A stretch of 64,000 bases of DNA from an uncultured Pontibacter sp. (lineage in GTDB: Bacteria; Bacteroidota; Bacteroidia; Cytophagales; Hymenobacteraceae): contig NZ_CANLMZ010000013.1 of the NCBI RefSeq assembly GCF_947492645.1, positions 10,195 to 74,194 on the forward strand. The letters are read 5' to 3'. The notes beneath the pieces were generated by a model. It made no database searches. It had not been told where the DNA came from and saw only the letters and a list, made by a program, of their open reading frames with translations. Both the position numbers and the translations under genes were made by a program. This document shows, one piece after another, positions 15,766 to 56,505 of this stretch. Numbering within the stretch: position 1 is the stretch's first letter; each line of letters starts with the position of its first letter.

Positions 15766-16263
15766 GTGATGCCAGTTAGATTTGGTGCAAATATGCTAAG
15801 CAACTAATATAGTAAAGCTAACAATTTTTGTGAAGTTCCACCGCTAACATGTTTATGTTGCTGTTAGATATTACTACTAGCTTATACTCTTTATTATCCT
15901 GGCAAAGTGAAATCAGGCTCTATTTACTTGAAATGGCTTTTAAATAAAAGTAAACTTCAGGGTTGAGTTACGGAGCATTATACACGAGGATGTTAGCGCT
16001 TTCAGAGAAACATTTAGAAGCTTTTACGCATTATCCTTATATACTTAGGGCTTGGGTAGAATTTCTATGAGAACAATCTGAAATAGTAACGGATCGGGTG
16101 GAATTACATAATCGGAACAAAGTTGTTTTTAACAGTAAAGATGTTTCGATAAATCTGTTATAAGTAATGGTGCAAATTTGGTAATAGCCAAAGTATAGAA
16201 TATGCTAAATTGCATGCATCTGTTTTACCGGTATTTATATGGCTCTGCCTAAACAAACCTTAT

Positions 16264-16845
16264 ATGTACGAACTGTTCTTCCAGAAATTCAATGAAAAAG
16301 TAGCACTCTCACCTCAAGAACAGGAGCAAATAAAGGTATACTTAACGCCGAAGAAACTGCGCAAAAGACAGTACCTGTTGCAGGAAGGAGATGTGTGCAA
16401 ATCCATTGCTTTTGTAGAAAAGGGGGCTTTGCGCGCCTACACGGTTGATGAGAACATGAATGAGCACATCATTCAGTTTGCCATAGAAAGCTGGACGATC
16501 TCGGACCTGTTCAGTTACCTGACGGCTGAGCCTGCCACTTATAACATCGATTCCTTGGAAGATGCAGAACTGGTACTGATCACCCGTTCTGCCCACGAAG
16601 AACTTCTAAGAACCCAGCCAAAATACGAGACTTACATCCGCCTGCTTATTACAGGTGCTTACATTGCTTTGCAACGGCGACTCTCATCCAACATCAGCCA
16701 GCCGGCAGAAGAACGCTACACCCGCTTTACAGATACCTACCCTGCTATTGCCCAGCGCGTGCCGCAACACATGATTGCTTCCTACTTAGGCCTGACACCT
16801 GAAACCCTGAGCCGGATACGCAAGAAAATGGCTGAGCGCAGGTAA
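16264..16845 (+). CDS. Crp/Fnr-family transcriptional regulator
   Basis: cNMP-binding-like N-terminal domain (RKRQYLLQEGDVCKSIAFVEKGALRAY) and a C-terminal HTH (IASYLGLTPETLSRIRKK). The start is moved to the ATG at 16264 inside the 16210 ORF. Confidence 0.85.
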   Translation: MYELFFQKFNEKVALSPQEQEQIKVYLTPKKLRKRQYLLQEGDVCKSIAFVEKGALRAYTVDENMNEHIIQFAIESWTISDLFSYLTAEPATYNIDSLEDAELVLITRSAHEELLRTQPKYETYIRLLITGAYIALQRRLSSNISQPAEERYTRFTDTYPAIAQRVPQHMIASYLGLTPETLSRIRKKMAERR

Positions 16846-19598: not shown

Positions 19599-20057
19599 CT
19601 ACCAGTTCACCATATACTGATAAGGAACGCCCGCTTCATAATCATCCTCATCAATTCCCAGATCATCTCCGACGTAATTGTCCACATAGTTGGTCATCCG
19701 GCATTCCTCAAATGTAAGGTAGCCTTGAATGTAACCGCCCTTATCCCAGCTCTCCCCGGTGCGTTTCATATACTCTTTTTTGAGGAGAGCATATTCCTGA
19801 GGAGCGCCTAAGTAATAGAAGCCTGAGGAACATCTGAAAAAGCCATGTTCTCTTTGATGAGTCCAATAAATATCCAAATTCTTACCGGCTATTCCCTTGT
19901 TCTTCTCTATTTCTTTTTCCAGGTTCACCAGCACTTCGATCAGGTTATAATCGCTAAGCGCGCTTATGTCCACCACCTCTTGTAGATGGTCAATTATTTT
20001 GCTGCAGTAGGTAGGCTCACTAATAGAATGTAAGTGTGCGTTGGCTTCGAAAAACAT
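19599..20057 (-). CDS. hypothetical acidic protein, paralogue of 20579..21010
   Basis: 152-aa ORF. It shares a block with the divergent neighbour (LLKKEYMKRTGESWD versus MLKREFNKRTGQEWD, plus a preceding L..LE.E helix). I recognise no known domain. Confidence 0.6.
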   Translation of the reverse strand: MFFEANAHLHSISEPTYCSKIIDHLQEVVDISALSDYNLIEVLVNLEKEIEKNKGIAGKNLDIYWTHQREHGFFRCSSGFYYLGAPQEYALLKKEYMKRTGESWDKGGYIQGYLTFEECRMTNYVDNYVGDDLGIDEDDYEAGVPYQYMVNW

Positions 20058-20578: not shown

Positions 20579-21010
20579 ATGAAAAAGCAACCTGTTTTTG
20601 AAGCCATCACACAACTACGAGCTGTCCACACCAATGACTTCAGAGCTTACACCCGCTGCATCGAAAAGTATGTTGGCAAGACCGACCCATTTCTCAGATG
20701 GAAGCTGGAGCACCTGGAAGATGATTCCCTATGCCGGGTACTTTACGATCTGGAAGAGGAAATGTCCTATTATGAACAGGAGCATGGATACCAACCTAAC
20801 AAACCGATGGAGCTCACCATGCTGAAGCGGGAATTCAATAAAAGGACTGGCCAGGAGTGGGATGAGGTTTACATCGATTTTGAAGAGATCCGTTACGGTG
20901 GTTACGCTTCCATTCACTCCTATACGACAAGAGAGCTAAAAATTATAGAAGATCAGTATAGCGGCTATGACTGTACGGACGGTTTCAATACGGATGACTT
21001 TAAGATTTAA
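20579..21010 (+). CDS. hypothetical acidic protein, paralogue of 19599..20057
   Basis: 143-aa ORF that shares the KRTG-x-EWD block with the divergent neighbour. Confidence 0.6.
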   Translation: MKKQPVFEAITQLRAVHTNDFRAYTRCIEKYVGKTDPFLRWKLEHLEDDSLCRVLYDLEEEMSYYEQEHGYQPNKPMELTMLKREFNKRTGQEWDEVYIDFEEIRYGGYASIHSYTTRELKIIEDQYSGYDCTDGFNTDDFKI

Positions 21011-23320: not shown

Positions 23321-24250
23321 ATGAAAACATATAACGGAACCACCGTGAAGGTGATAGGAGTGGGCGGTATCGGCTGCAATACTATAAGCTACATCCATGA
23401 GCAGAAACTCAATCATGTTCAACTTGTAGCCTGTGATTTTCAAGGACCAGTTTCTGATAGTGGAATAGCAGACACGCTATTCCTAAAAGCAAATGAACAA
23501 GAAGCTAATCCTGCTAATGCTGACGCTGAGATAATCCAGAACACGGTCTTCACTAAAGCAGAACGTGTGAAGGAAATGCTGGTAGAAGGCAATACGGAGA
23601 TTGTGTTTATAGTTGCCGGGATGGGTGGCGCAACCGGAACAGGTGCTGCACCGGAGATTGCCCGCTTGGCTAAAGAACTAAGTTTGCTGACGATAGGTGT
23701 TGTGACGGCTCCTAAAGACTCAACTATAGCTGAAGCCGGTATTAATGCTATGAAGAAACATACAGATACTACCATTGTGCTTTCAATAGATAAGCTGAAC
23801 CAGCAGAAGGAGATTTCGCTAAGGATAGATGTTTCTGATCAGCTAAATAAATATGTTGCCACAGCGGTGCGGGCTATAACTGAAATAGTGACAGTAACCG
23901 CTGAAGTAAATGTAGATGTAGAAGACGTGCGTATAGTTATGGCAGGAGCTGGAAGAGCTACTGTTGGAAGCGGTACAGGTGCCGGGGAAGGCCGTGCTAT
24001 GATAGCTGCCCAGGAAGCAATTGCTACAGCTTTGCTTGGCAACGAAATTCAAGGTGCTAACCGGGTACTGCTTTCTGTTATTTCCGGACCTGAAACTGAG
24101 CTTGAAATGGAGGAGCTGACAGAGATAACTGAGTTTATCCAAAACAGTACCAGCGAACAGGCGGAGATAATTTTTGGCCATGCGATTGATGAAGACCTAG
24201 AAGATCAGCTGCGGGTAACATTCATCGCATCTACCTTTTCTGAGAACTAA
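23321..24250 (+). CDS. FtsZ/tubulin-family GTPase paralogue (core only, no C-terminal linker or tail)
   Basis: 309 aa with VIGVGGIGCN (G-box 1), the tubulin signature VAGMGGATGTGAAPEIA, LLTIGVVTAP, a T7-like N-x-D-x-x-D (VNVDVEDV), and a C-terminal FtsZ-type subdomain (GANRVLLSVISG...IIFGHAID...VTFIAS). Confidence 0.85.
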   Translation: MKTYNGTTVKVIGVGGIGCNTISYIHEQKLNHVQLVACDFQGPVSDSGIADTLFLKANEQEANPANADAEIIQNTVFTKAERVKEMLVEGNTEIVFIVAGMGGATGTGAAPEIARLAKELSLLTIGVVTAPKDSTIAEAGINAMKKHTDTTIVLSIDKLNQQKEISLRIDVSDQLNKYVATAVRAITEIVTVTAEVNVDVEDVRIVMAGAGRATVGSGTGAGEGRAMIAAQEAIATALLGNEIQGANRVLLSVISGPETELEMEELTEITEFIQNSTSEQAEIIFGHAIDEDLEDQLRVTFIASTFSEN

Positions 24251-24300
24251 TTACAAGCTTGCAAAGTAGCAAGGGCAGGGGAGTAGGCGCAGTATATTTG
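24251..24300 (+). promoter_or_regulatory. conserved upstream element TTACAAGCTTGCAAA plus -7 box TATATTTG (copy 1)
   Basis: The 15-nt motif at 24251-24265 (core palindrome CAAGCTTG) is identical to 29245-29259. The TATATTTG box at 24293-24300 lies exactly 42 nt downstream of the motif start in both copies and matches the Bacteroidota -7 consensus TAnnTTTG. Confidence 0.65.
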
Positions 24301-24323
24301 TGCCGTACTATCCACTCCTGCCT

Positions 24324-24821
24324 ATGCTTGAACCCCTGCCGTTTGTTCCTTATCCTTTTGTTACGCTGCCGGACGAAAATCTGAGCTACGAACCTATCCT
24401 GTATGTAGCGCCCGATCGCCTGATCTGCACAGGTGATGTTACGTTTAAAACCAAGCACTACCCGTTAGCTAAAGTATTGTCTGATAAGTTCAAACAAGAG
24501 TGGTCGCAGGAAATGGCGGACGAGATGGCCCGAAGGGTAATTAAAGAGTCTAAAGGCTATCTCGTAAGCAGAGACCTTTTTGTTAGTGCCATTATCCTGC
24601 CTGACTTTACGTTCTCAGCTATGGAGTTAGCTTATTCTGGCAAGACTCCCATTACTGGTCTCGACGTTACCTATGGATGGCCTTCCGGCAAGATCACCCG
24701 CATTACTAAAATACTGTATGGGTATACAGTTGGAATGGAGTCATGCATCCTGCATGTGCGCCACGAAGAAGCCGCTTTGCCCGGAAAGGTACATCATCAG
24801 CTCCAATTTCCTATTCAGTAA
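24324..24821 (+). CDS. hypothetical protein, family shared with 29315..29776
   Basis: The C-terminal block VTYGWPSGKITRITKILYGY...ILHVRHEE matches VTYTWPNGRITQVKRVIKAY...VLYVRHES in the paralogue. The start is moved to the ATG at 24324 because the ORF-track start (24300) overlaps the -7 box. Confidence 0.6.
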   Translation: MLEPLPFVPYPFVTLPDENLSYEPILYVAPDRLICTGDVTFKTKHYPLAKVLSDKFKQEWSQEMADEMARRVIKESKGYLVSRDLFVSAIILPDFTFSAMELAYSGKTPITGLDVTYGWPSGKITRITKILYGYTVGMESCILHVRHEEAALPGKVHHQLQFPIQ

Positions 24822-24841
24822 AGCTCATATAAACGATAGCT

Positions 24842-25861
24842 ATGCGCAAGAAACAGATCACTACTTTTTACATGCCCCAGCAGGTAGATGCCCTCAACGG
24901 AGAAGACCTGTATACCCGCAGTCCGAACAAGCCGGCTTTGCTGTTAAACAAATTAAAGCTGGAAGGTCTGATGCCGTACTTTGATGTAAAAGAATATGCT
25001 CCTTTTGAAAAGGAAGAATTTTACCTGGCGCATACACAGGAATATGTAGATGCCTTTTTTGAAGGTACCAAACCACTGGCTACCACCAACGGCCTTACCT
25101 GGAGCGAGAACCTGGTCAATTCTGTGTGCTATACAAATGCCAGCCTATACCATGCTATCAAATACGCCATGCAGCACCCTGAAGTGCTCACCTTTAGCCC
25201 GACCAGCGGCTTTCACCACGCCAAACCTGATCGTGGCTCCGGGTTCTGTACCTTTAGTGGACAGGTGATTGCTTCGGTTAAATTATACCAAGAGCTGGGT
25301 GTTTCCGGGGCTTACCTGGACCTGGACCATCACTTCGGCAACTCCATAGAAGACAGCCGCAGTTTCGTACCAGATCTGGACAAGGCGATTCCTGTCTATG
25401 CCAACATAAACCCGAAAGGTACCAACGAAAGTTACCTGGCAGATCTGTGCCGCAACCTGGCTATACTTAAAGAGAAAATACTTGCCAGAGAGATACACTA
25501 TATTGTATGGTGCCATGGGGCCGACTCGCATGTGTATGATGACTTGGGCGGAAGCGTGAATACAGATTACTGGTTGTTGGTGGCAGAGTTGTTTTATAAG
25601 TGGGTGCTGGAAGTAGAGCAAGAGTTGGGGTACCATTTACCAGTTAGTATGTCGTTGTTTGGGGGCTATCGTACCAATGCTTATGATTCAGTACTATCAC
25701 TACACACAGCTGATCTGGTAATGGCTGCCAATATGCTTTTAGGCCACTCCATTGCTTACGAGCCACAGGTAGAAGTAAATCCTTATATCAGTAAAGAACC
25801 TTTCCGGGTAGCCATTGCTGCCGGCGAAACCATTATGGGCTACCTTGACGAAATTTTGTAA
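24842..25861 (+). CDS. histone-deacetylase (HDAC/acetoin-utilisation/acetylpolyamine amidohydrolase) superfamily protein
   Basis: 339 aa with SGFHHAKPDRGSGFCTFSG (HH plus GFC block), YLDLDHHFGNS (D-x-H metal ligands), CHGADSHVYDDLGG and FGGY (catalytic Tyr context). Confidence 0.75.
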   Translation: MRKKQITTFYMPQQVDALNGEDLYTRSPNKPALLLNKLKLEGLMPYFDVKEYAPFEKEEFYLAHTQEYVDAFFEGTKPLATTNGLTWSENLVNSVCYTNASLYHAIKYAMQHPEVLTFSPTSGFHHAKPDRGSGFCTFSGQVIASVKLYQELGVSGAYLDLDHHFGNSIEDSRSFVPDLDKAIPVYANINPKGTNESYLADLCRNLAILKEKILAREIHYIVWCHGADSHVYDDLGGSVNTDYWLLVAELFYKWVLEVEQELGYHLPVSMSLFGGYRTNAYDSVLSLHTADLVMAANMLLGHSIAYEPQVEVNPYISKEPFRVAIAAGETIMGYLDEIL

Positions 25862-26053
25862 AATTCCTACACTTTCTAAGTATATAATTTTTATTATATA
25901 GTATTTTTATATACTTTTGTAATACAATTCCCCTTTATTTATTGGTTAGTGAAAGTAAAAGTGCCGAAAGGGCGCTTTGTGTTCGTTCGTGTCCTTGATT
26001 AGGATGCGATGTGTTCCCGTGTGTCTGTATTTCAACCTATAAACCCCTGTTAA

Positions 26054-26611
26054 ATGAGAAGAGACTTTATTTGCCGCCAGTTAGAAGATGTTCGTTCGTC
26101 CAATGAGCCAATCGTCCTTAATGAGCAAGATGTAGACCTGAGCGGATTGGACTTGTCCGGTCTTAACATGAGCGGGTCAACTTTTACAAAGGTTAACTTA
26201 AAAGGAGCTAATCTTAGAGGGGCAATTCTGAAAGAGGTTGAGTTTAAAGGTGTTGAATTGGATGGAGCTAACTTACAAGGGGCTTGTTTAGTGGACGCAA
26301 AGTTTGACTGCAGCCAACTTATTAAAGCTAACCTTAAAGGAGCAGAGATGCGCTATACTAAACTCTTCTCTACTTTCTTTACTAATGCAGATTTAACCGG
26401 TGCTGACCTGTCCGGCTGTAAGATGGCTTACTCAGATTTCTCTCATGCCATTATGGACGATGCAAACTTGTCTGATGCTGACATTAACCTGATCGTTAAT
26501 GAAGATGACGAGATGGATAAGAATGACTTTACATGTGCTTCCATGTATGGCGCAATCATTACCTCACCTGAAGTAAGAGTTTTTCTAATAGAAGAAGGAG
26601 CAGAGCTGTAA
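26054..26611 (+). CDS. pentapeptide-repeat protein
   Basis: 185 aa with uninterrupted A(D/N)LxG-type pentapeptides (DLSGLDLSGLNMSGSTFTKVNLKGANLRGAILKEV...ANLQGACL...ADLTGADLSGCKM). Confidence 0.9.
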   Translation: MRRDFICRQLEDVRSSNEPIVLNEQDVDLSGLDLSGLNMSGSTFTKVNLKGANLRGAILKEVEFKGVELDGANLQGACLVDAKFDCSQLIKANLKGAEMRYTKLFSTFFTNADLTGADLSGCKMAYSDFSHAIMDDANLSDADINLIVNEDDEMDKNDFTCASMYGAIITSPEVRVFLIEEGAEL

Positions 26612-26704
26612 AATATGGTCGGCCTATACCTCTATAGTATAGCCCGATTATAGTTTCATAACATAGCCTGTAAGTTTTAACCTATAACCAACTATAGCCA
26701 ACAC

Positions 26705-27123
26705 ATGATAGAAGTAACAGCTGGAGTAATTCAGAGAAATGGCCTTTTTCTAATTGCCCGACGTGCGCCTGGTAAAAGCCTGGAAGGGTATTGGGAGTTT
26801 CCGGGTGGCAAAGTAGAAGCCGGAGAAACCCACGAATATGCCTGGCCCGAGAACTAAAGGAAGAGTTGGACCTTGATGTAACGGTTGAGGAATACATTGG
26901 CGAATCTGTGTCTGGCGAAGGTAATAAGCAAATACGATTAGTTGCCTATGCTGCCAGATCGGAACAGGAAACCATTACTTCTAAAGACCATGACCAGCTA
27001 AAGTGGATCAGTATCTACGAGTTTGGCGACTATAATTTTGCCCCGGCGGATATTCCGATTATTGAGGCACTACTTATGAAGCGGATTGCGATAGTGGAGC
27101 AGTTGGCTGAAAGTTTAAAATAA
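26705..27123 (+). pseudogene. NUDIX (MutT-like) hydrolase interrupted by a frameshift inside the NUDIX box
   Basis: The frame from ATG 26705 reads MIEVTAGVIQRNGLFLIARRAPGKSLEGYWEFPGGKVEAGETHEY and stops at 26855. The rest of the box (CLARELKEELDLDV) and the C-terminus continue in another frame (ORF 26791..27123). Restoring one nucleotide near 26838-26842 rebuilds G-x5-E-x7-REUxEE. Confidence 0.75.
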
Positions 27124-27149
27124 GTTCTTTACACTTTAAAATTATAATT

Positions 27150-28244
27150 ATGAAAGTAGACATTGGAGAATCGATAATTTATTCTTGGCTTAGACATGAA
27201 AAGCAGTGTCAGTTTGTACAGCTTAATTGGAAGACTTCAGGGACTTGGGAAAAATCAAATATTGAACTTGCTGAAGACATTTTTGAAAAATTAAAAAAGA
27301 TAACTGATACAAGAGGGGTAAACTTAATTGGAGAATCTGTAAAGCTTGACCAATTTTTGAGGCAAGCTGAAATTGATGTGTTGGGATTATCTATCAATAC
27401 TAGTACAGGTATAAACAATCCATCTTATGCCATCTCAGCAGTTGATATAGCATTCCATGAGGGAGGATTAGGTTATAAGAACCCACACTTAGTGGTTGCT
27501 AAGAAACTTGCTAGAGCTGCATTAATCACTTTAATTTATTTCAAAACTGATAATGCGGAAATAGTTTTTGCTTCCCCTAAGGTACATAAAGATACATTAA
27601 ACAAGCTTGATGTAACATTATCAGAGGTTGAAAGATGTTTTGATAGTTTATCTTTTGACTTTAAGTGTATTTTCAATGATAATTTTGAAAAACAGATATT
27701 ATTACCAGTCCTAAATCATACTAGGAATATAGCCGATACATCAGAATTATTTTCACGAGCTACTAAACTGCTTGATGTATTCGGTTGCTTAAGAGAGAAT
27801 TTAAATGTAGAAGATTTAGGTAATATAGAAATTCAAGAATTAGATCAAGATGATGTTTCGGCAGATCAGAGAAGTTTAACAGATGAGATTTCTCTAGATG
27901 CCCTTTCATACAAAGAGTTAACTAAAATGTTGGATGAAGGTAACTTAAAGATTGGAGAGTTTGCGAAAACAATTTTTAATAAATTAGATGAAGATCAGGC
28001 TCTATTCCACCGTGTACTTGACTATTTAGAGAATGATAGAATTCCAACTGGCAAAGAACTTAAATTGTTGAAGCAGCTTAATCCCAATGATGATATAAAT
28101 AATCAGATAAAAGATTCAAAAGGGCGAGCAAGATATTACAGAAACCCTCTGAAGAATAATGATTACATTCTTTACAGTCAATGGGTAGAAGCTAGGCATA
28201 AAGTTCCTCTCAAACAAATGTTGGCTGATTTTAAATTGCTTTAG
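27150..28244 (+). CDS. hypothetical protein (AT-rich)
   Basis: 364-aa uninterrupted ORF in a very AT-rich segment. No motif that I can assign with confidence. Confidence 0.6.
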   Translation: MKVDIGESIIYSWLRHEKQCQFVQLNWKTSGTWEKSNIELAEDIFEKLKKITDTRGVNLIGESVKLDQFLRQAEIDVLGLSINTSTGINNPSYAISAVDIAFHEGGLGYKNPHLVVAKKLARAALITLIYFKTDNAEIVFASPKVHKDTLNKLDVTLSEVERCFDSLSFDFKCIFNDNFEKQILLPVLNHTRNIADTSELFSRATKLLDVFGCLRENLNVEDLGNIEIQELDQDDVSADQRSLTDEISLDALSYKELTKMLDEGNLKIGEFAKTIFNKLDEDQALFHRVLDYLENDRIPTGKELKLLKQLNPNDDINNQIKDSKGRARYYRNPLKNNDYILYSQWVEARHKVPLKQMLADFKLL

Positions 28245-28297
28245 GTTATTTATTTTAGTGATTTAAAATCATTAGTACGACAAAGCTTTATATTCTT

Positions 28298-29113
28298 ATG
28301 ATGGACATTACAACAAATGAAGAACCTAATGTACTAGAGGTCGCTTTAAGTACAATAAATAAACTTGCACATCAGCCAGATATAATGAATAGGCTGAATG
28401 AATTAGCTACTAAAACCACGTCATTACATTTATTCCTACGATTATATGATGACTATGAAAAAGAGGGTTTAGATCAAGACGATGAGATTCTAAATTGGAC
28501 CGTTCCAGTTATTACACGTGAATTAAACGCTGCTTTATGGAATTTAGCAAGCGGTTTTTATAAAACGGCTGCTACTTGCTTAAGTAGTGCATTAGAAATG
28601 GGGATAGTTGCCTTATATTTTCAGGTTCTTGAAAATGAAAAAGGTAATCAAGTAATGAGTAAAGAATTTGTTGAGTGGTATTCTTACAATGCATCTACAC
28701 CAAGCTGGAAGAAGGTAATAACGAAATTAAAACAAGACCAAAACATAGAGAAGTTCTCAAAGCAATTTGATTACGTTCCTCTTAAGGAAGTTAATGATCT
28801 CTATAGCTATTTTCAAGATTTTATACGGAACAGAAACCTATCTTCTATAGACACTGAAGGAGCTAATTATATGAATATGAGAAACTCTGCAGGGGAATTC
28901 TCAAATGATGAATTTTTAAGATTTAGCGATGCTTTTGATAGTACAATAGGTATGATTGCTTCTTCTTGGGCTTTAGTATACCCACACATCGTTGAAGGAT
29001 ACTCTCATACTTACAGCAGTACTTCCTATAGTACGTTAGTAGATTTATTTCAACCACTTTATCCTCAGTTTGTACTATACCATTTAAATACAAAAAGCAC
29101 GGCAGGTGCTTAA
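28298..29113 (+). CDS. hypothetical protein (AT-rich)
   Basis: 271-aa ORF on the same strand, 53 nt after the previous gene. No recognised domain. Confidence 0.6.
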   Translation: MMDITTNEEPNVLEVALSTINKLAHQPDIMNRLNELATKTTSLHLFLRLYDDYEKEGLDQDDEILNWTVPVITRELNAALWNLASGFYKTAATCLSSALEMGIVALYFQVLENEKGNQVMSKEFVEWYSYNASTPSWKKVITKLKQDQNIEKFSKQFDYVPLKEVNDLYSYFQDFIRNRNLSSIDTEGANYMNMRNSAGEFSNDEFLRFSDAFDSTIGMIASSWALVYPHIVEGYSHTYSSTSYSTLVDLFQPLYPQFVLYHLNTKSTAGA

Positions 29114-29244
29114 GGCATAATGGTTTATAGTAACCTTTGACTGTTGTTCTGATACAAAACTAGTTGTTTCTGAATGTTAGAAATAAATTATACGCTTAAG
29201 GGGTCATTGAGACAATTATTCCTTAAGCTTTTACCCCTGGTTTA

Positions 29245-29294
29245 TTACAAGCTTGCAAACTATCAGTGCAGCACTTCATACAGGTTTATATTTG
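29245..29294 (+). promoter_or_regulatory. conserved upstream element TTACAAGCTTGCAAA plus -7 box TATATTTG (copy 2)
   Basis: The motif at 29245-29259 and the TATATTTG box at 29287-29294 have the same 42-nt offset as copy 1. A 10-bp perfect inverted repeat acaggtttat (29280-29289) / ataaacctgt (29305-29314) brackets the -7 box and abuts the ATG at 29315. Confidence 0.65.
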
Positions 29295-29314
29295 AACATT
29301 TAACATAAACCTGT

Positions 29315-29776
29315 ATGATTAAATATTCTTATCCTTTTATTATTCCACATGAAGAAGGTGGTAAGTTATATGTTTCTTCCAATCGTTTTATAGGTGCAGG
29401 CACCTTTAGCTATGGAATTGATAAGGAAATTATAGAGCAGGCTCTATTAGATGAATGCAAGCAAAAATGGCCAGATAAAATTGCTCCGCAAATAGCTAGT
29501 GGATTAGTTACTAGCCTAACAATTGGGTACAGCAGTAGTTTACCTATGATTAATGCGCTTGGGGTTCCAGATCATGTAACGAAACAAGTTCAACATGTTT
29601 TTTATGGAGGTGTCGAGATTATGGGACCAAATGTAACGTATACTTGGCCCAATGGCAGAATTACACAGGTTAAAAGAGTAATCAAGGCATATGCCTTTCA
29701 AGACTCAAATGTATTGTATGTGCGGCATGAGTCGGTTAAGTCTCATAGCGAGATTAACTACATGTTAAGTGTTTAA
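29315..29776 (+). CDS. hypothetical protein, family shared with 24324..24821
   Basis: 153 aa. See the paralogue for the shared C-terminal block and the shared upstream element. Confidence 0.65.
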   Translation: MIKYSYPFIIPHEEGGKLYVSSNRFIGAGTFSYGIDKEIIEQALLDECKQKWPDKIAPQIASGLVTSLTIGYSSSLPMINALGVPDHVTKQVQHVFYGGVEIMGPNVTYTWPNGRITQVKRVIKAYAFQDSNVLYVRHESVKSHSEINYMLSV

Positions 29777-29864: not shown

Positions 29865-31034
29865 ATGATGCAAGTTCATTTAATTCGTTCTCATGATTTT
29901 AGTTCTGAAGCTTTTGAAATGATTCAGAACGTGCTTCAATCTAAAGCAGGACTTATATCGTTTATCGGCAGCAAAACCATATGTGGATGTCTTAGACTGA
30001 GTGTAGTTGTTGAAAAAGACTTTGATGGTTATACCTCAGATACCAGCTGGCAGAACTTTAACGACTTCTGTACCAGATACCGAAATGAAAATGGTTTATC
30101 ACCAGAGGATGTTGTGGTACTACTTACACCCGAACCATTATTCTTAAACTGGTTTACCGCTTTTGACGATGAAGAGAACAACATCTTTATACGAACAGAT
30201 GAGTGGGAAAAGTACTTACATTGTAGCCCGGTATATCCTGTTGCTTACCTTGTAATGGCTCAGGTTCTACAGAAAGCATTGTACAAATCAACTGCTGTTA
30301 AGCTAGCGCATACACACGATAAACCAGAGGGATGTATCAATGACTTTTGTAGCTATAAAAAGGACATAACCTTTAAGTTGCGTACAGCTGATATTTGTGT
30401 TCCCTGCTTAGAGAAAATGGTGCATGCAGGATTAAAGCCAGAATACATTACCCAGGCACTTTCACTCTTTGATGTAATACGCCAAGAGATGTTATTTCGG
30501 CAGCGCTACAAATTAAACTTAGTGCCCAAGAGCATTGCTATAAGAAGAAACAAAGGCAGAAAAAAGGGTATCGTTGTAGAGTTATTGGAATCGAAACAGT
30601 TAGTGGAACTTAACCCAACACAGTCTCTTGTTTATCTCTTCTTTTTAAATCATCCAGAAGGGGTAGTACTAAGTAAGTTATTGCATACAAAGTATAGAGA
30701 AGAGCTACTTTATCTATATGCAAACCTTACCAACAGAATAAAAATCAATAATACTGATTCATTGAATCGGTACGCTGGTATTGAAAATACTATTGACTCT
30801 TTAGTTACGGATGATGCCATACTTTCTCCTATCATTGCCAAAATTAAAAAGCTATTTATAGACAAAATTGGCCTTGAGAGCTCAAAAGTGTACTACATCC
30901 AGGGCGAGAAATCTATGCCTAAAAAAATCAGCTTAGATCGTTCAATGATCACTTATGAGCAGGATGTTATTGATTATGTGCTAGGACCATATCATTTTGC
31001 ACAGCCGGAAAGTAATACTGTTTTAATACAATAA
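29865..31034 (+). CDS. hypothetical protein with archaemetzincin-like Cys4 motif (HExxH degenerate) and C-terminal helical domain
   Basis: 389 aa. The segment LAHTHDKPEGCINDFCSYKKDITFKLRTADICVPC has the same C-x4-5-C-x-[MY]...C-x2-C layout as the canonical archaemetzincin at 47031, but lacks HExxH. Confidence 0.55.
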   Translation: MMQVHLIRSHDFSSEAFEMIQNVLQSKAGLISFIGSKTICGCLRLSVVVEKDFDGYTSDTSWQNFNDFCTRYRNENGLSPEDVVVLLTPEPLFLNWFTAFDDEENNIFIRTDEWEKYLHCSPVYPVAYLVMAQVLQKALYKSTAVKLAHTHDKPEGCINDFCSYKKDITFKLRTADICVPCLEKMVHAGLKPEYITQALSLFDVIRQEMLFRQRYKLNLVPKSIAIRRNKGRKKGIVVELLESKQLVELNPTQSLVYLFFLNHPEGVVLSKLLHTKYREELLYLYANLTNRIKINNTDSLNRYAGIENTIDSLVTDDAILSPIIAKIKKLFIDKIGLESSKVYYIQGEKSMPKKISLDRSMITYEQDVIDYVLGPYHFAQPESNTVLIQ

Positions 31035-31059: not shown

Positions 31060-32070
31060 ATGGACTTTATGGGAATCAGTCTCTTGTTAAAAGCTACTTT
31101 ACTTTTTTTGCTTCTCTCATGCGCTAGTCTATGCAAAGCGCAGGCACTAAGTAAAGCAAAGTTTTACAAAAAGATTGAAAAGCTTTATCTAAGTGGCGAG
31201 TATGATAAAGCTCTTAAGGAGATTAAAAAGCTAGAGCAGGAGAGATTTGATAAAGAAGGCAACTTAAAGTATTCTCTCCGAAATGACATAGTCTACTACC
31301 ATTTCAAACTTTCAGCAATTTTAAAAAGAGGTGAAAAAAATAATCTTCGAGAATTGGTCGGTCTTTATAGTAGGCTACAAGCACTGGATAGCACAAAGCA
31401 ATATCTCACACTGCCACAATACAAGTCTCTTTTAATATACTTTAATCAGGTTGCTGAGAAGTTCCTGCATACGGATCAACTAATGCTAACAAGGAGTATA
31501 GTTAACATACTCGCTAGACATGGAGATACGACAGTCCTTTATCATAGTGTTTACCCGAAGCTTGAGACATTAGAACAAGCTAACAGAGGTGCCTTGCAAG
31601 AGTTTTTGATAAAGTATGATTTTGGCGAAGTTGATAAAAAGGCATTAGCAGTTAATAAGCAGTCTGCCATCAAAGAACAGGCTCTGGAATTAACAAAAGG
31701 CCTGACTCATGATTTTGAGAAAGCGAGGGCAATCTATAGCTGGATTGTATATAACATTACCTACGACTACACCTATTCATATTACTTTGCAGGCGATACC
31801 TTTAAGAACAATTCAGGAGTATGCAGTGGGTTTAGTTACTTGTTTCAAGAGATGTGTTACTACGCTGGTTTGAGTGCTGTTCGAATAACTGGGAGGGCTT
31901 ACAATGGATCAGGCGTAGGAAGGCATGCATGGAATTCTGTGGAATTGTATGGTTATGACTTCTTTATTGAGAGTACTTGGGCATCCTGTGTTAAGGAAAA
32001 AGTGGATGACTATTTTCTAGTAGATCCTCAAGTATTTTCTAAAACTCATATTGCAGACATATATGATTAA
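31060..32070 (+). CDS. secreted transglutaminase-like (papain-fold cysteine peptidase-like) protein, copy 1
   Basis: 336 aa with a signal peptide, a helical N-terminal half, and a C-terminal core SGVCSGFSYLFQEMC...GRHAWNSVE...IESTWAS (Cys and His in transglutaminase-core context). It is a paralogue of 48456..49472. Confidence 0.7.
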   Translation: MDFMGISLLLKATLLFLLLSCASLCKAQALSKAKFYKKIEKLYLSGEYDKALKEIKKLEQERFDKEGNLKYSLRNDIVYYHFKLSAILKRGEKNNLRELVGLYSRLQALDSTKQYLTLPQYKSLLIYFNQVAEKFLHTDQLMLTRSIVNILARHGDTTVLYHSVYPKLETLEQANRGALQEFLIKYDFGEVDKKALAVNKQSAIKEQALELTKGLTHDFEKARAIYSWIVYNITYDYTYSYYFAGDTFKNNSGVCSGFSYLFQEMCYYAGLSAVRITGRAYNGSGVGRHAWNSVELYGYDFFIESTWASCVKEKVDDYFLVDPQVFSKTHIADIYD

Positions 32071-35503: not shown

Positions 35504-36619
35504 ATGAAAACTATACAACTAATAAAAAGCCACATTGGTGGACGATCTGAGCAGCAAGACTCGAGCAATTCAGAGAGAGTACAAACAAAAATTGGCCGGC
35601 TACTTTTAATTGCCGATGGAATGGGTGGGCATAATGGAGGGAGTATAGCATCAAAAAAAGCTATTGAAGTTGTTTTAGATACTGTAAATAATTGTGAAGT
35701 CTCATTATCTGCATCAGATTGTTTAGTAAACAGTATTTGCAAGGCCAATGAAGCTATATATAATACTGCTCAAGAGGACCCAGCTTTAAAAGGTATGGGT
35801 ACAACCATAGTAGCTTTATTACTAACTGACGAATCTGCTATTCTTTGTCATGTAGGAGATAGCAGGATATATCATATAAGAGGTAATTCTATCCAGTTTA
35901 AGACTCAGGACCATTCTTGGGTAGGGGAGATGGTGAAAAATGGGCTTCTCAGCGAACAAGAAGCTCAACATCATGAAAAGTCAAATATTATAACTAGAGC
36001 TTTAGGCATAAGCTCGACTGTACAGGTTGACTCACATACAATAACAGACCTACAGGAAGAAGATATGTTTCTTCTATGCTCTGATGGAATAACTGGTGCT
36101 TTAGATGATGCTACGCTAGTTCAGGTACTCAATTCGAAAGAACATTTAGAGGATTGCTTAGACCACATTATTTCTGTTGTAGATAATGTAGGCCAATCTA
36201 AGGGCGGTGGACATGACAACATGACTATTGGTGTCTTGAAGATTAAGAAATTAGAGAAAAACCAAGCAAATCTTAAGACACGAATTATTCCAGAGCAGGA
36301 TGGTGGATCTTCACCTGAAAAGGCTGGCATTAACAAAAAGCTACTTGTAACACTCATTTTTTTAGCTGTTCTGTTAAGCTGTATCAGCTTCTACTTAGGG
36401 TACCAAAATGGAGCTCCTGAAGCCAGCCTGAATAATAATGAGCAGACTGATGAGAAGCGAAGTGAGTTAACTACGCCTGTACAAGATAAGGAAGATAATG
36501 ATCTGCCCACGGATAGAAAAGCGGTAGATAAAAATACCTCTCAACATGCCATTATACCTTCAAACGAAACACAAAAGACGACAGTTGAATCAAACCCAAC
36601 TGTAAATAATGCAGAGTAA
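35504..36619 (+). CDS. PP2C-family Ser/Thr protein phosphatase with C-terminal membrane anchor
   Basis: 371 aa with ADGMGGHNGGSIASKKA, GTTIVALL, HVGDSRIY, LCSDGITG and HDNMT. It has a hydrophobic helix LLVTLIFLAVLLSCISFYLGY and then a polar tail. Confidence 0.9.
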   Translation: MKTIQLIKSHIGGRSEQQDSSNSERVQTKIGRLLLIADGMGGHNGGSIASKKAIEVVLDTVNNCEVSLSASDCLVNSICKANEAIYNTAQEDPALKGMGTTIVALLLTDESAILCHVGDSRIYHIRGNSIQFKTQDHSWVGEMVKNGLLSEQEAQHHEKSNIITRALGISSTVQVDSHTITDLQEEDMFLLCSDGITGALDDATLVQVLNSKEHLEDCLDHIISVVDNVGQSKGGGHDNMTIGVLKIKKLEKNQANLKTRIIPEQDGGSSPEKAGINKKLLVTLIFLAVLLSCISFYLGYQNGAPEASLNNNEQTDEKRSELTTPVQDKEDNDLPTDRKAVDKNTSQHAIIPSNETQKTTVESNPTVNNAE

Positions 36620-36623
36620 TCTA

Positions 36624-38333
36624 ATGACAACAGACTTACTAATTCCTAATTATAACCTTCTGCGTGTAATAGGCGAAGGGGGCATGGCCACAGTGTACCT
36701 TGGCGAACACGCTCATCTGGGTAATAAGGTGGCTATCAAGGTGCTCAACTCCCACTACGCTCGGCACCAGCAGGTGCGAAGTCGCTTTTTGACGGAGGCC
36801 AAAGTGCTGGCCTCCTTTCAGCACCCGCACATTGTAGGCGTAAAAGACTTCTACGAAGAAGGCGATACGCTGGCTTTTGTCATGGATTATGTTGAAGGAC
36901 TTCCCCTTGATGAGTACCTCTACACTCACAATGCCCTGCGTGATCCGGCTAAAGCCATTGTTTTCTTTTCACAGATGCTGGATGCCTTCAGCTATGCCCA
37001 CCAAAAGGGGGTAGTGCACCGTGACATCAAGCCCGGCAATCTGATGGTAACACAGGACGGACAAGTGCGGGTGTTGGACTTTGGGATTGCTAAATTATTG
37101 GAAACGCAAGTAGGTGCGGCTAAGGCCACTGCCACCGGCACGATGCTAGGCACGCCGATGTACATGAGCCCGGAGCAGATCAACTTAAAGTCAGGCGAAA
37201 GCATTGACCACCGCAGTGACATCTACGCGTTAGGGGTGACGCTGCATCAGATTCTCTCAGGTCGTCCGCCCTACGATGCTGACACCCATTCAGGCTTTGA
37301 GATGCAGATGAAAATCATGACTGAGCCCCTGTCTCGCCTGGAACAAGTGCCCGAGTGGCTGCAGCAGGTTGTAGACAAGGCCACAGCTAAGATAAGAGAC
37401 GATCGTTTCCAGAGCTGCTCTGAATTCCTGCAAGCGCTTAGAAGAGAAACAGGCGCTAGCATAGTAGAGCAGCCAGTGTTCAAGCCTGTCTATAATGAAA
37501 CTCCTAGAGTGGAGGCTAAGACAGTTGTAAGTACGCCAGAGCAGCAGAAGACACATTTAACTGCTGTTCCTCAAGTAACACAAATACTTGAAAAGCCACA
37601 GACCACGCAGTTTATCGCCCCTGCCCAACCAACCAAAGCAGTAGAGCAGAAGGCGGGACTGGATCTAAATAAATTCGGTAAAGAGCCTGATAAAAAGAGT
37701 AACACTTTGTCTTGGGTCATAGCAGTTTTAGTTATAGTCATTGGTGGTATCATTTGGGGAGTTAGTGTAATGTCTGGTAGTTCATCTTATTCTGGTTCAG
37801 AGACTGTGATAAGTGATGAGACCTGGGTTGAAGAGACTATAATTGAAGATACAACAGCTATTGAAGTGGATGAAGTAAAAGTTGTTGAAGCTGAACCTTT
37901 TGTAGTTGGTAAATCAGTAGTTGAAAAAGCTTTCCTACAGTACTTACCTGACATTTCTGGAGGAAGAAACCTTTTGGAGTTAGAAGCTTACGAAGGGAAA
38001 AAATACAAAATTTTAGTTGGCGATTTAAATGGCGATGGCCTGCAGGATGGTATAGTTGATTACTCTCTTGAACCAACATTTGAAGATACTGGCGGAGGAA
38101 ATGCAATTGGCGCACTACCGGGGCTAGTAGCATTCATCAATACTGGTAATAAATTGACTATTGCTGATCATTCAGAAGAATTTAATTACATGTATAAAAT
38201 ATCGAAAATTAATAATGGGGTTATCTTTCTTGAAGGGTTCGAATATGCAGAGGATGACGCAAGGTGCTGTCCTTCAATTGAAGTAACTAAGAAGCTTGTA
38301 CTTCGAAATGATAAGTTAACATCATTAGATTAA
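36624..38333 (+). CDS. Hanks-type Ser/Thr protein kinase 1 (TM plus extracytoplasmic FG-GAP-like domain)
   Basis: GEGGMATVY, VAIKVL, HRDIKPGN, DFGIAK and MYMSPEQ, with TM helix WVIAVLVIVIGGIIWGV and a C-terminal domain containing VGDLNGDGLQDGIVD. The start is set to the ATG at 36624 (MTTDLLIPNY), as in the three paralogues. Confidence 0.9.
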   Translation: MTTDLLIPNYNLLRVIGEGGMATVYLGEHAHLGNKVAIKVLNSHYARHQQVRSRFLTEAKVLASFQHPHIVGVKDFYEEGDTLAFVMDYVEGLPLDEYLYTHNALRDPAKAIVFFSQMLDAFSYAHQKGVVHRDIKPGNLMVTQDGQVRVLDFGIAKLLETQVGAAKATATGTMLGTPMYMSPEQINLKSGESIDHRSDIYALGVTLHQILSGRPPYDADTHSGFEMQMKIMTEPLSRLEQVPEWLQQVVDKATAKIRDDRFQSCSEFLQALRRETGASIVEQPVFKPVYNETPRVEAKTVVSTPEQQKTHLTAVPQVTQILEKPQTTQFIAPAQPTKAVEQKAGLDLNKFGKEPDKKSNTLSWVIAVLVIVIGGIIWGVSVMSGSSSYSGSETVISDETWVEETIIEDTTAIEVDEVKVVEAEPFVVGKSVVEKAFLQYLPDISGGRNLLELEAYEGKKYKILVGDLNGDGLQDGIVDYSLEPTFEDTGGGNAIGALPGLVAFINTGNKLTIADHSEEFNYMYKISKINNGVIFLEGFEYAEDDARCCPSIEVTKKLVLRNDKLTSLD

Positions 38334-38382
38334 TCAATACATATAGCTCCTTTCTATAAATTATTTTAAGAAAAATAATTAC

Positions 38383-40035
38383 ATGACAACAGACTTACTG
38401 ATTCCTAACTATAACCTTCTTCGCGTGATAGGCGAAGGTGGCATGGCCACCGTGTATCTGGGCGAACATGCCAGGCTTGGTAACAAAGTAGCTATTAAAG
38501 TACTCAACTCCCACTACGCCCGCCACGAGCAGGTGCGCAGCCGCTTTTTGACCGAAGCGAAAGTGCTGGCTTCATTTCAACACCCGCACATTGTGGGGGT
38601 AAAAGACTTTTTTGAAGAAGGTGATGTGCTGGCCTTTGTGATGGATTATGTAGAAGGACTACCGCTGGATGAGTACCTCTACACCCACAACGCCTTGCGT
38701 GATCCAGCTAAAGCCATTGCCTTTTTTTCGCAGATACTCGATGCCTTCAGTTATGCGCACCAAAATGGAATAGTGCACCGCGACATCAAGCCTGGCAACC
38801 TGATGGTAACACAGGACGGACAAGTGCGCGTGTTAGACTTTGGCATCGCCAAGCTGCTGGAGACACCGGTAGGCGCGGCCAAGGCCACAGCTACCGGTAC
38901 CATGCTAGGTACACCCATGTACATGAGCCCGGAGCAGATCAATTTAAAGCCAGGCGAGAGCATCGACCACCGTAGTGACATCTATGCGCTGGGCGTAACG
39001 CTGCACCAGATTCTCTCCGGCCGTCCGCCTTATGATGCTGATACCCATTCGGGCTTTGAAATGCAGCTAAAGATTATGACTGAACCCCTGCCACGATTAG
39101 AACATGTGCCAAACTGGCTGCAGCAGGTGGTAGATAAAGCTACAGCTAAGAAAAGAGAAGATCGTTTCCAGAGCTGCTCTGAATTTCTGCAAGCACTGAA
39201 AAGAGAAATAGGTGCTAGCAAAGAAGAGCAGCCAGTGTTCAAGCCTGTCTACAACAAAGCTTCAAGAGTAGAAGCCAAGACAGTGGCAATTGCCCCAGAG
39301 CAGCAAAAAACACAGATTGCTTCAGTCCCACAAGCCACACAAATACTTGAAAAGCCACAGACCACGCAGTTTATCTCTCCGGCTGCGGAGACCAAAGTAG
39401 TAGAACAGAAGGCGGGTTTAGATATAAGTAAGTTAGGTAAAGAGCCGGAAGAAAAAAGTAAAGCAATTTTATGGATCGGTCTTGCCTTGTTGTTAACAGT
39501 CATCTGCGTTGTAATGTGGCGAGTTATGATGAATGATGAGGAGTTCACTATTCAAGATGAACCTTTTGTCGTATCAAAAACAGTTGTCGATGACTCTTTT
39601 GTACAATATCATCCAGATCCTAATTTGTACTCAAGTCATTTTAAAGAACTGCTGCCCAAAGGTTATGACATTGGTATTGGTGATATTAATAAAGACAGTT
39701 TAGAAGATGGAGTAATAGCATACAACTACAAACAATATGCTGGATATAATGACACAATTCCTTCGCGGTTATTTGGTGTCTTGGCTATGATTAATAACGG
39801 AAGTTATTTAGTAGAATATGATAATTCATCTGAACTTTTTGAAAACGGTAAATACATGTTTCTCTTAAAGAAGTTAGCAAAAGTTGAAAATGGAATAATT
39901 TTTTTAGAAGGAATTGAAGTTGATAATATGAGAGGTGATATAAGAACTGCAAAGCTTGAAGTTGTTTTACGCGATAACAAATTATTCCGCCAAAAATGGT
40001 CTACAAAAATTAGAGGTAATTGGAGAAATAGATAG
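38383..40035 (+). CDS. Hanks-type Ser/Thr protein kinase 2 (TM plus diverged extracytoplasmic domain)
   Basis: The kinase motifs are the same as in kinase 1. It has a TM helix LWIGLALLLTVICVVMW and a C-terminal domain with IGDINKDSLEDGVIA. Confidence 0.9.
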   Translation: MTTDLLIPNYNLLRVIGEGGMATVYLGEHARLGNKVAIKVLNSHYARHEQVRSRFLTEAKVLASFQHPHIVGVKDFFEEGDVLAFVMDYVEGLPLDEYLYTHNALRDPAKAIAFFSQILDAFSYAHQNGIVHRDIKPGNLMVTQDGQVRVLDFGIAKLLETPVGAAKATATGTMLGTPMYMSPEQINLKPGESIDHRSDIYALGVTLHQILSGRPPYDADTHSGFEMQLKIMTEPLPRLEHVPNWLQQVVDKATAKKREDRFQSCSEFLQALKREIGASKEEQPVFKPVYNKASRVEAKTVAIAPEQQKTQIASVPQATQILEKPQTTQFISPAAETKVVEQKAGLDISKLGKEPEEKSKAILWIGLALLLTVICVVMWRVMMNDEEFTIQDEPFVVSKTVVDDSFVQYHPDPNLYSSHFKELLPKGYDIGIGDINKDSLEDGVIAYNYKQYAGYNDTIPSRLFGVLAMINNGSYLVEYDNSSELFENGKYMFLLKKLAKVENGIIFLEGIEVDNMRGDIRTAKLEVVLRDNKLFRQKWSTKIRGNWRNR

Positions 40036-40159
40036 CTTTTGATTTTTTTTGATAAACATAACTTATTATATGTTAATGGTTATGCCTAATTAAAATTAAA
40101 GGTCTCAAAAAAAATATCAATTAAAATAATACCGAATCTTTTCGGTAATAAATAACTCT

Positions 40160-41611: not shown

Positions 41612-41630
41612 ATTTTGATTGTAAACCTCT

Positions 41631-43355: not shown

Positions 43356-43430
43356 CTCATATATTGCTCGTTATGAGACTTATAGAATTCTGTGGCAAAT
43401 AATACCCATTGACTAAGTTTTATTCGGAAA

Positions 43431-53837: not shown

Positions 53838-53859
53838 ATATTTTTTAATATATTTGAGA

Positions 53860-53895
53860 AATGCAGAAAGGCTGCACTTTAGTATAATACTTTTG
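53860..53895 (+). promoter_or_regulatory. 19-bp element AATGCAGAAAGGCTGCACT + TAnnTTTG box (copy 1, WYL/ATPase divergent region)
   Basis: The element at 53860-53878 contains the palindrome TGCAG-N5-CTGCA. TACTTTTG at 53888-53895 starts 10 nt after the element. The element sequence and spacing are identical at 56442-56477. Confidence 0.65.
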
Positions 53896-53899
53896 TATC

Positions 53900-55423: not shown

Positions 55424-55428
55424 CCGAT

Positions 55429-56436: not shown

Positions 56437-56441
56437 ATTCC

Positions 56442-56477
56442 AATGCAGAAAGGCTGCACTCCCTGCCCGTACCTTTG
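56442..56477 (+). promoter_or_regulatory. 19-bp element AATGCAGAAAGGCTGCACT + TAnnTTTG box (copy 2, upstream of hsdM)
   Basis: The element is at 56442-56460. TACCTTTG at 56470-56477 starts 10 nt after the element, as in copy 1. Confidence 0.65.
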
Positions 56478-56505
56478 CATTATAATTACAGAATAACACA
56501 TACCC

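Follow-up and report, generated by a model that had tools for sequence, protein, structure and literature searches.

Two copies of a short palindromic element in a 64-kb stretch of DNA from an uncultured Pontibacter sp. (contig NZ_CANLMZ010000013.1; the whole stretch is called the window here) belong to a widespread operator-promoter module, apparently not described before, that occurs in accessory islands of Bacteroidota. Each copy lies upstream of one of two paralogous genes, named here DUF1 and DUF2 (DUF, domain of unknown function). The module comprises a 14-16 bp palindromic operator with the consensus [TC]T[AG]CAAGCTTG[TC]A[AG], a 26-27 bp spacer lacking a -33 TTTG, and a -7 box of the form TAnnTTTG. 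The best overall explanation, which we consider probable, is that the operator is activating, that its factor is likely a 389-aa protein encoded next to DUF2, and that hairpins at the DUF start codons would add a separate layer of control. Full-text literature searches returned no description of the operator motif and no paper joining its core sequence to Bacteroidetes; DUF6717, a family that recurs below, was not mentioned in them either.

The features on which the argument rests are as follows, in window coordinates.

24250..24265, + strand: operator copy 1, ATTACAAGCTTGCAAA; near-palindrome TTACAAGCTTGCAA at 24251-24264
24293..24300, + strand: -7 box copy 1, TATATTTG (Bacteroidota TAnnTTTG type), 27 nt after the 15-mer
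24268..24328, + strand: hairpin 1; start codon ATG 24324-24326 is paired in the stem, inside which the -7 box lies
24324..24821, + strand: DUF1, orphan 165-aa protein with the conserved start MLEPLPF
29244..29259, + strand: operator copy 2, ATTACAAGCTTGCAAA
29287..29294, + strand: -7 box copy 2, TATATTTG, 27 nt after the 15-mer
29276..29318, + strand: hairpin 2, 14-bp perfect stem 29276-29289 / 29305-29318, pairing ATG 29315-29317
29315..29776, + strand: DUF2, 153-aa DUF1 paralogue
29865..31034, + strand: 389-aa protein, archaemetzincin-fold pseudo-protease with a C-terminal winged-helix candidate, the proposed regulator

An earlier sequence-only reading had pointed to a 15-mer, TTACAAGCTTGCAAA, present twice, and it was found exactly at 24251-24265 and 29245-29259. 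The exact identity extends one base further upstream to give the 16-mer ATTACAAGCTTGCAAA at 24250-24265 and 29244-29259. The same reading had placed a box 42 nt from the start of the motif and an ATG 20 to 24 nt past the box, and both distances were confirmed: TATATTTG starts at 24293 and 29287, 42 nt from the 15-mer in both copies, and the ATG follows after 23 nt (24324) in copy 1 and 20 nt (29315) in copy 2. The box conforms to the TAnnTTTG -7 element of Bacteroidota primary-sigma promoters. The -33 TTTG or TTG of such promoters, searched for 17-21 nt upstream of the -7 box, was not found, as had been noted, and TTG was absent from the whole of both 27-nt spacers. No further match to the 15-mer with 0 or 1 mismatch occurred within the 64-kb window, and matches with up to 3 mismatches were at chance level (8 found, 5.6 expected). 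A common local repeat was ruled out by these counts. The DNA upstream of the two genes could not be aligned outside the 16-mer and the box, and by our own estimate the chance of an exact 16-mer common to two upstream regions of about 100 nt is about 2e-6.

Comparison with related loci, designated by L numbers, showed that the same elements are retained while their surroundings change. Two of them, L001 (a Logan contig) and L032 (an uncultured Pontibacter sp. contig), are about 89% identical to the window over the locus. In nine orthologous FtsZ-like/DUF1 intergenic regions, taking in DUF1 proteins down to 60% identity, TAATTACAAGCTTG[CT]AAAG and the TAnnTTTG box were essentially invariant, and the spacer and flanks drifted. 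The region upstream of DUF2 in L001 has diverged almost completely, yet it keeps TTACAAGCTTGCTAA, the box TAAGTTTG and the 42-nt distance. After a low-GC insertion in the window, homology to L001 restarts exactly at the first base of operator 2.

To determine the distribution of the module, one genome per species (185,579 species) was scanned with the pattern TTACAAGCTTGNNAA-N(25-29)-TANNTTTG, that is, palindrome, spacer and TAnnTTTG. There were 79 matches, with about 4 expected per spacing under uniform composition. Spacings of 25, 26, 27, 28 and 29 nt gave 9, 24, 31, 9 and 6 matches, so that 55 of the 79 fell at 26 or 27 nt (chi-square p 3e-6, binomial p 1e-7). Judged by record titles, 52 of these 55 were from Bacteroidota, against about 6 of 24 at the other spacings; they belonged to Cytophagales, Sphingobacteriales and Chitinophagales, with a few Flavobacteriales and Bacteroidales. 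The distance between operator and box, and its helical phase, were fixed across independent promoters. Several genomes had three to five sites, often grouped on one contig. A single perfect palindrome stood between two divergent promoters, with a box 26-27 nt away on each side, in L020, L034, L029, L062 and L002, which indicates that the dyad is usable in both orientations. Of 44 non-redundant operator promoters, 4 had a TTG at -33, and a control window gave the same figure. Because only the dyad and the box are common to different promoters, the operator is not a dispersed repeat. The pattern had no canonical instance in IMG/VR viral contigs; 19 matches there were redundant, non-canonical and coding in appearance, and a phage origin was rejected.

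The genes downstream of these promoters are diverse. They include DUF1 orthologues, an AAA/M41-like ATPase, DUF2130, SprT-like, RhuM/Fic, DUF6717 and vWA genes, a DprA operon and many orphans. The sequence-only reading had tied the element to the two DUF genes, which proved too narrow, as the site precedes dozens of unrelated families in Cytophagales, Sphingobacteriales, Chitinophagales and some Bacteroidales. Genes of these conflict islands include those for vWA, Ser/Thr kinase (STK) with PP2C, FtsZ-like, HDAC-like (histone deacetylase-like), DUF2130 and SprT-like proteins.

Some of these loci have features of their own. In L002, a related island, operators were located at 7635-7648 and 10101-10114. 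The divergent one serves promoters for a 329-aa orphan on its left and for 67-aa, 209-aa and archaemetzincin-like (AMZ-like) genes on its right. The second copy, ATACAAGCTTGTAG, precedes a DprA gene and has no clear box. In L015, L071 and L074 (Daejeonella / Sphingobacteriales) a single palindrome is flanked by two orphan genes, one of 390 aa (MNTEFLYLVAEQLYLNASGH...) and one of 187 aa that has an IMLGHG motif, and the second promoter has TATTTTTA in place of TAnnTTTG. The DUF2130 operator promoters of four genomes (L049, L058, L079 and L080) have a conserved stem-loop, CCTTAATCAGCGAATTAAGG, directly after the -7 box, a possible 5' untranslated region element.

The 389-aa protein was linked to the operator in both directions. 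When the open reading frames (ORFs) of motif-selected Bacteroidota loci were clustered into families, the 389-aa or AMZ-like family was the most recurrent one, present in 15 loci. In every genome with at least three sites, a gene of this family adjoined a site. In all cases where the contig extended far enough (the window, L001, L002, L013/L030 and L032), an AMZ-like gene was also found no more than 8 kb from the DUF1 operon. The family has 69 database homologues, all annotated as hypothetical and without Pfam domains, and at least 521 metagenome loci; its usual operon consists of DUF6717, vWA and then the AMZ-like gene. In the reverse test, loci were picked by homology to the 389-aa protein alone (80 loci from metagenomes, 499 kb in total). 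An exact match to the 10-mer core was present at about 22 places in this sequence, with about 1 expected, mostly 700-1250 nt upstream of the AMZ-like gene, at the operon start. Upstream sequence of at least 1.4 kb was available for 40 loci, of which 14 had the exact core and 28 had it with at most one mismatch, about ten being expected by chance. In these loci, which were not selected for a box, TAnnTTTG was found downstream of the core, within a range of 0-42 nt, at spacings of 25-28 only. The core dyad was also seen at the operon head in homology-picked loci of Cnuella (L081) and Algoriphagus (L082) and in L086. The core flanks differed between AMZ-like clades, being TT..AA, CT..AG, TG..CA or GCAAGCTTGC.

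The AlphaFold model of the 389-aa protein was confident (predicted local distance difference test, pLDDT, 86). For residues ~1-215, the top five fold matches in PDB were all archaemetzincins (Foldseek probability 1.0, template modelling score about 0.6 on the target). The Cys4 motif G156-C157-x4-C162-x15-C178-xx-C181 is invariant in the family and the HExxH motif is lost, H151 being the sole invariant His and the window reading VKLAH. The protein had been guessed to be a degenerate archaemetzincin, and this was borne out: the fold is present, the Cys4 is kept and the catalytic-type motif HExxH is gone. On this model the N-terminal domain is a pseudo-protease, for which no Pfam M54 match was obtained. 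No N-terminal receiver domain is present, the archaemetzincin fold standing there instead. Residues 224-288 are predicted to form 3 strands and 3 helices, and the C-terminal half of the family carries the conserved string L-P-L-E-K-T-L-Y-L-L-F-L-N-H-P-E-G-I. No PDB sequence match was found for the C-terminal domain. In hhalign, a four-sequence OmpR-family profile gave a probability of 71.5% and E 3.6e-5 over alpha1-alpha3, a result to be taken as a lead and not as a test.

Inverted repeats had also been noted around both -7 boxes. Both were real. In copy 2 the repeat is longer than had been described, with 14 perfect bp (29276-29289 against 29305-29318) that include the start codon; in copy 1 an imperfect hairpin (24268-24328) pairs the ATG as well. 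RNA folding gave -17.7 kcal/mol (z -6.7) for hairpin 2 and -33.2 kcal/mol (z -4.7) for hairpin 1, which is GC-rich. In both copies the stem, which pairs the ATG with bases upstream of the box, is thus more stable than shuffled sequence. With both arms included, the window copies had z -5.5 each. Hairpin 2 persists in L001 (z -4.7), where a single base pair shows a compensatory C>T / G>A change (2 sequences compared). For hairpin 1, z was weaker in the orthologues (L004 -4.2, L001 -2.3, L005 -2.2). Across nine orthologues, 91.5% of cells were paired, compared with 32-56% in slid controls, and the pairing includes many G-U pairs. The hairpin is not a general feature of operator promoters, since 22 others had z from -2.6 to +1.9; it forms an additional layer found at DUF1 and DUF2 only. 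Neither hairpin has a T-run, a terminator-like site on the + strand or an Rfam family, and both an intrinsic terminator and a known RNA family were rejected by terminator scan and Rfam. No terminator-like site was found between the upstream genes and the DUF genes.

A structure in the sense RNA is favoured because the two stems share architecture, not sequence, and rely on G-U pairs. A read-through transcript from the co-directional upstream genes would contain both arms and hide the start codon, and one initiated at the internal -7 promoter would be without the 5' arm and so translatable. The hairpins therefore probably block translation of read-through transcripts. As both DUF genes follow co-directional genes without a terminator, we propose that DUF expression depends on the operator. 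Another interpretation, which we hold to be quite improbable, is that the inverted repeats are DNA operators at which the DUF proteins autoregulate, or upstream terminators, rather than RNA that blocks translation. They do flank the -7 box and the probable start site, where repressors typically bind; each DUF paralogue has its own repeat sequence, and the symmetric change between the window and L001 would equally fit a co-evolving palindromic site. The many G-U pairs, however, are possible in sense-strand RNA only, neither stem has a T-run and the terminator scan was blank there, and the DUF structure model showed neither a recognisable DNA-binding fold nor a match in PDB.

We propose the following mechanism. 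If transcription starts 4-7 nt past the box, the dyad would be centred at about -46 to -50. A dimeric transcription factor bound there would recruit RNA polymerase to promoters that lack a -33 contact. The 389-aa protein is our leading hypothesis for the cognate DNA-binding factor, one to which we give a little under half of our confidence. It would combine an archaemetzincin-fold pseudo-protease domain, presumably a sensor, with a C-terminal winged-helix-like domain. At operator 2 it would regulate its own operon (DUF2, itself, and the transglutaminase-like and DUF2779 genes), and at operator 1 the DUF1-HDAC-pentapeptide-NUDIX operon. In other Bacteroidota the same operator heads many operons of conflict or defence islands, for example DUF6717-vWA-AMZ-like, DUF2130, AAA/M41-like, SprT-like, DprA and RhuM/Fic, besides numerous orphans. 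A more specific form of the proposal, in which a new one-component activator family (a dead archaemetzincin sensor with a divergent PhoB-like winged helix) runs a mobile conflict/defence regulon via the ACAAGCTTGT dyad, with DUF1 and DUF2 as hairpin-insulated small partners, is put forward tentatively, as possible rather than probable.

Activation is favoured because the spacing is fixed, the dyad works in both orientations and the -33 element is missing. The suggestion that an activator co-regulates both modules survives in so far as a position-locked conserved site without a -33 element links them; that this site activates is what the promoter geometry suggests. The palindrome could instead be a repressor operator, bound by the AMZ-like protein acting negatively or by a LexA-like or XRE-S24 regulator; the -7 promoters would be constitutive in its absence, and the island genes would stay off until a signal came. 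LexA-like repressors of Bacteroidetes recognise short palindromic SOS boxes, namely GGA-N5-TCC, CTAA-N5-TTAG and, in one paralogue, the diverged TTAC-AAATT-GTAA (PMC8565304). Like the present site, these stand before several Bacteroidetes operons, and some variants of the present site have TTAC/GTAA-like outer bases. DNA-related genes are among the targets here (SprT-like, DprA, DUF2130 and an SbcD-like gene), and the Bacteroidales RhuM/Fic promoters have a canonical -33 TTTG 20 nt before the box, abutting the palindrome, so those promoters look self-sufficient. The site nevertheless lies upstream of the core promoter and not over it, and its distance is locked to 26-27 nt, whereas repressors seldom need a fixed distance; moreover, 40 of the 44 promoters lack a -33 TTG. 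What is conserved is ACAAGCTTGT, between flanks that vary (CT..AG, TT..AA, TG..CA), and not TTAC-N5-GTAA: the spacer is 6 nt and is itself conserved (AAGCTT), and the outer bases vary. No SOS genes and no S24 peptidase regulator occurred among the genes downstream of or neighbouring the operators, and recA, umuDC and dinB were absent from the downstream genes. An SOS box of the LexA-like type was rejected, since motif, position upstream of the promoter and regulon content all differ, and repression in general appears unlikely.

Somewhat less unlikely, though still doubtful, is that a conserved host factor, for example of the Crp/Fnr type, binds the operator, with the AMZ-like operon as its commonest target and the 389-aa protein as an effector or sensor. 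The core is identical in several orders, and its 5-4-5 layout, TTACA-N4-TGTAA, resembles FNR/PrfA-type boxes. A Crp-like gene is located at 16210-16845 in the window, no helix-turn-helix (HTH) model matches the 389-aa family, and no AMZ-like gene lies within 8 kb of the RhuM/Fic sites of Bacteroidales. Against this, the AMZ-like family, although rare, occurred in 15 of the motif-selected loci and beside a site in every genome with three or more; the operator flanks differ between its clades, and the C-terminal half of the protein weakly resembles OmpR/PhoB. The WYL regulator of the island, another candidate factor, was rejected, as it showed no association with operator sites. It is scarcely credible that a chance match, or neutral survival since the duplication behind the two paralogues, accounts for the 16-mer and box. 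The genes are paralogous and their upstream regions may share ancestry, but the proteins have fallen to 28% identity and the remaining upstream DNA cannot be aligned, yet 16 nt, box and spacing are identical; the same module stands before dozens of unrelated genes in other genomes, and the chance expectation estimated above is very low.

Several points weigh against activation by the 389-aa protein and against the hairpin layer. OmpR-family proteins usually bind direct repeats, not palindromes, and a dyad centre near -46 is outside the classical class I and class II positions of E. coli. The winged-helix assignment of the C-terminal half is weak: with PhoB alone (beta4-alpha1), hhalign gave E 1.6e-3 and a probability of 16%, and no Pfam HTH or Trans_reg_C match at E<=10 was obtained in 38 family members. 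A host-encoded factor with the AMZ-like operon as its most frequent target would produce the co-occurrence of gene and operator as well. No recognisable core was found in Lentimicrobiaceae AMZ-like loci (L083-85) or in about 12 of the 40 metagenome loci, and the 64-kb window has two sites only. Covariation in hairpin 1 was not significant, as 3 pairs change on both sides and 40 of 500 shuffles reach this level.

The two genes behind the operators had been described as paralogues, and DUF1 and DUF2 were 28% identical over 152 aa (E 3e-21). The label DUF itself did not stand, as the family is an orphan and not a Pfam DUF. When 1.84 billion cluster representatives were searched exhaustively with a profile, two 50%-identity clusters alone were returned, those of the two paralogues. 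Neither protein had a match in Pfam, NCBIfam or PADLOC; they are unrelated to DUF6717 and have no plasmid homologues. The structure (AlphaFold2 model, pLDDT 77, 1 of 5 models confident) had no fold match in PDB. The genes that follow them were as the sequence-only reading had described, a Hist_deacetyl protein (Pfam E 3.4e-19) after DUF1 and an archaemetzincin fold without HExxH after DUF2. FtsZ-like, DUF1, HDAC-like, pentapeptide and NUDIX genes form a conserved gene string in seven annotated related contigs. The HDAC-like gene follows DUF1 in all 8 loci with an annotated or alignable downstream gene, and in the two remaining DUF1 loci the DNA homology continues through the HDAC-like gene. 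The pairing of DUF2 with the AMZ-like gene was confined to the window and L001. Of the proposed adaptor-plus-effector design, the DUF1-HDAC pairing is conserved, and the second module is doubtful, as the 389-aa family is everywhere the one most closely tied to the site and usually follows DUF6717-vWA, not a DUF2-like gene. The 389-aa protein is more likely a regulator than an effector.

The other features of the two operons are listed below.

23321..24250, + strand: FtsZ-like gene, 309 aa; Pfam Tubulin/FtsZ_C and TIGR00065, both below cut-off
24842..25861, + strand: HDAC-like (Hist_deacetyl) gene, conserved DUF1 follower by Pfam and synteny
26054..26611, + strand: pentapeptide-repeat protein, conserved member of the DUF1 operon by synteny
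26705..27123, + strand: NUDIX gene, conserved last gene of the DUF1 operon; frameshifted in the window
27191..29244, + strand: two-gene insertion of low GC content (33%), with 37 bp at this place in L001
31060..33995, + strand: transglutaminase-like and DUF2779 genes, co-directional with short gaps; order identical in L001

The stop codon of the FtsZ-like gene abuts operator 1, and this gene is directly 5' of DUF1 in all related loci (synteny L001-L005). The transglutaminase-like and DUF2779 genes are probably the remainder of the operon driven from operator 2. Compared with L001, a deletion of 1 nt after 26836 divides the NUDIX gene between two frames; the gene is either a pseudogene or the product of an assembly error. 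The insertion at 27191-29244 has two orphan genes (27150-28244 and 28298-29113), the latter with a very weak HamA/DUF1837 match. A sub-threshold Rfam snoR60 match (30 bits, gathering score 40) at 26416-26479, inside the pentapeptide gene, is almost certainly due to chance.

The first 19 kb of the window are ordinary chromosome with GH92, MFS and SDR genes and a Crp-like regulator, and from about 19.5 kb onward it is a mosaic accessory island. The island genes are, in order, YkuD, FtsZ-like, DUF1, HDAC-like, pentapeptide, NUDIX, DUF2, the 389-aa protein, transglutaminase-like, DUF2779, PP2C, four tandem Ser/Thr kinases, FHA-FtsK, a true M54 peptidase, NERD-TPR, the WYL regulator, an AAA_15 ATPase and a type I restriction-modification system. 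At its left edge, two small divergent orphan genes (19599-20057 on the minus strand and 20579-21010 on the plus strand) are apparently paralogues of each other; they have common motifs around W-D/E-x-G-Y and E-E-x-R, and neither has a Pfam match. The PP2C phosphatase, the four tandem paralogous kinases (36609-43355) and the FHA-FtsK/SpoIIIE ATPase, at 35504-46559, constitute a kinase-based conflict-type module. The true Peptidase_M54 (archaemetzincin) with an intact HELGH is encoded at 47031-47693, followed by YkuD and then by a further transglutaminase-like gene (48456-49472), which is paralogous to that at 31060-32070, the follower of the AMZ-like pseudo-protease. In the defence cluster at 52812-63851, the WYL/WCX regulator (minus strand) is divergent from the AAA_15/AAA_21 ATPase, which is followed by a complete type I restriction-modification system (HsdM, HsdS and HsdR). 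A pair of WYL and AAA_15 genes also lies near the AMZ-like operon in Cnuella (L081).

The proposed system resembles several known ones in part. In E. coli, PhoB is a winged-helix activator that acts from the pho box, a short box at a fixed distance from a -10-type element where the upstream hexamer is absent. A fixed-distance box without an upstream hexamer is seen here as well, and, as PhoB does, the regulator proposed here would control itself and head a multi-operon regulon; its C-terminal half tentatively aligns with OmpR-family helices. The 389-aa protein differs in that it has neither a receiver domain nor a Trans_reg_C Pfam match and has an archaemetzincin-fold pseudo-protease at its N-terminus. 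The box here is a palindrome 26-27 bp from the -7 box, whereas the pho box is a direct repeat 10 bp from the -10. The class II sites of CRP, FNR and PrfA are similar in having a 14-bp dyad with 5-bp half-sites (TTACA-N4-TGTAA), fixed phasing and a weak or absent upstream element. They differ in position, as the dyad here would be centred at about -46 to -50 and not at -41.5; the promoter here is of the Bacteroidota -7 type, and no regulator with a cyclic-nucleotide-binding (cNMP) domain or of the Crp type was linked to the operator sites. On these defining features the present system belongs to neither the PhoB nor the class II group.

Archaemetzincins (Peptidase_M54; PDB 3lmc, 3zvs and 2x7m) share with the 389-aa protein the fold of residues ~1-215 and the zinc motif G-C-x4-C...C-xx-C; this protein lacks HExxH and has an extra C-terminal domain of about 170 aa. 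ImmA/ImmR of ICEBs1 and CapP/CapH of CBASS (cyclic-oligonucleotide-based antiphage signalling systems) are pairs of proteins, an active protease and an HTH repressor. There, too, a metalloprotease-type module is coupled to a DNA-binding module (here a candidate one) by which accessory or defence genes are controlled from a palindromic site. In the present case one polypeptide would combine both parts, the protease fold is dead and the geometry suggests activation. In the leading region of the IncN plasmid pKM101, the CUP (conserved upstream) elements are repeats that extend over several hundred bp. They likewise place one repeated promoter/operator unit before many unrelated accessory genes under a single regulator, whereas here about 16 bp and the box are common and the loci are chromosomal islands in which no conjugation genes were seen.

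To our knowledge, very few transcription-factor regulons have been defined in Bacteroidota outside Bacteroides. The 16-bp operator with its fixed promoter geometry provides a sequence handle by which the regulon can be listed in any genome. As far as we know, Bacteroidota also lack Shine-Dalgarno-led initiation, and the hairpin arrangement, if true, would be a way in which an internal gene is made dependent on its own promoter in this phylum. If the pseudo-protease/winged-helix protein is indeed the factor, it would represent a new sensor-regulator architecture. The operator could unite dozens of orphan families in one response, and may provide inducible promoters for Cytophagales and Sphingobacteriales.

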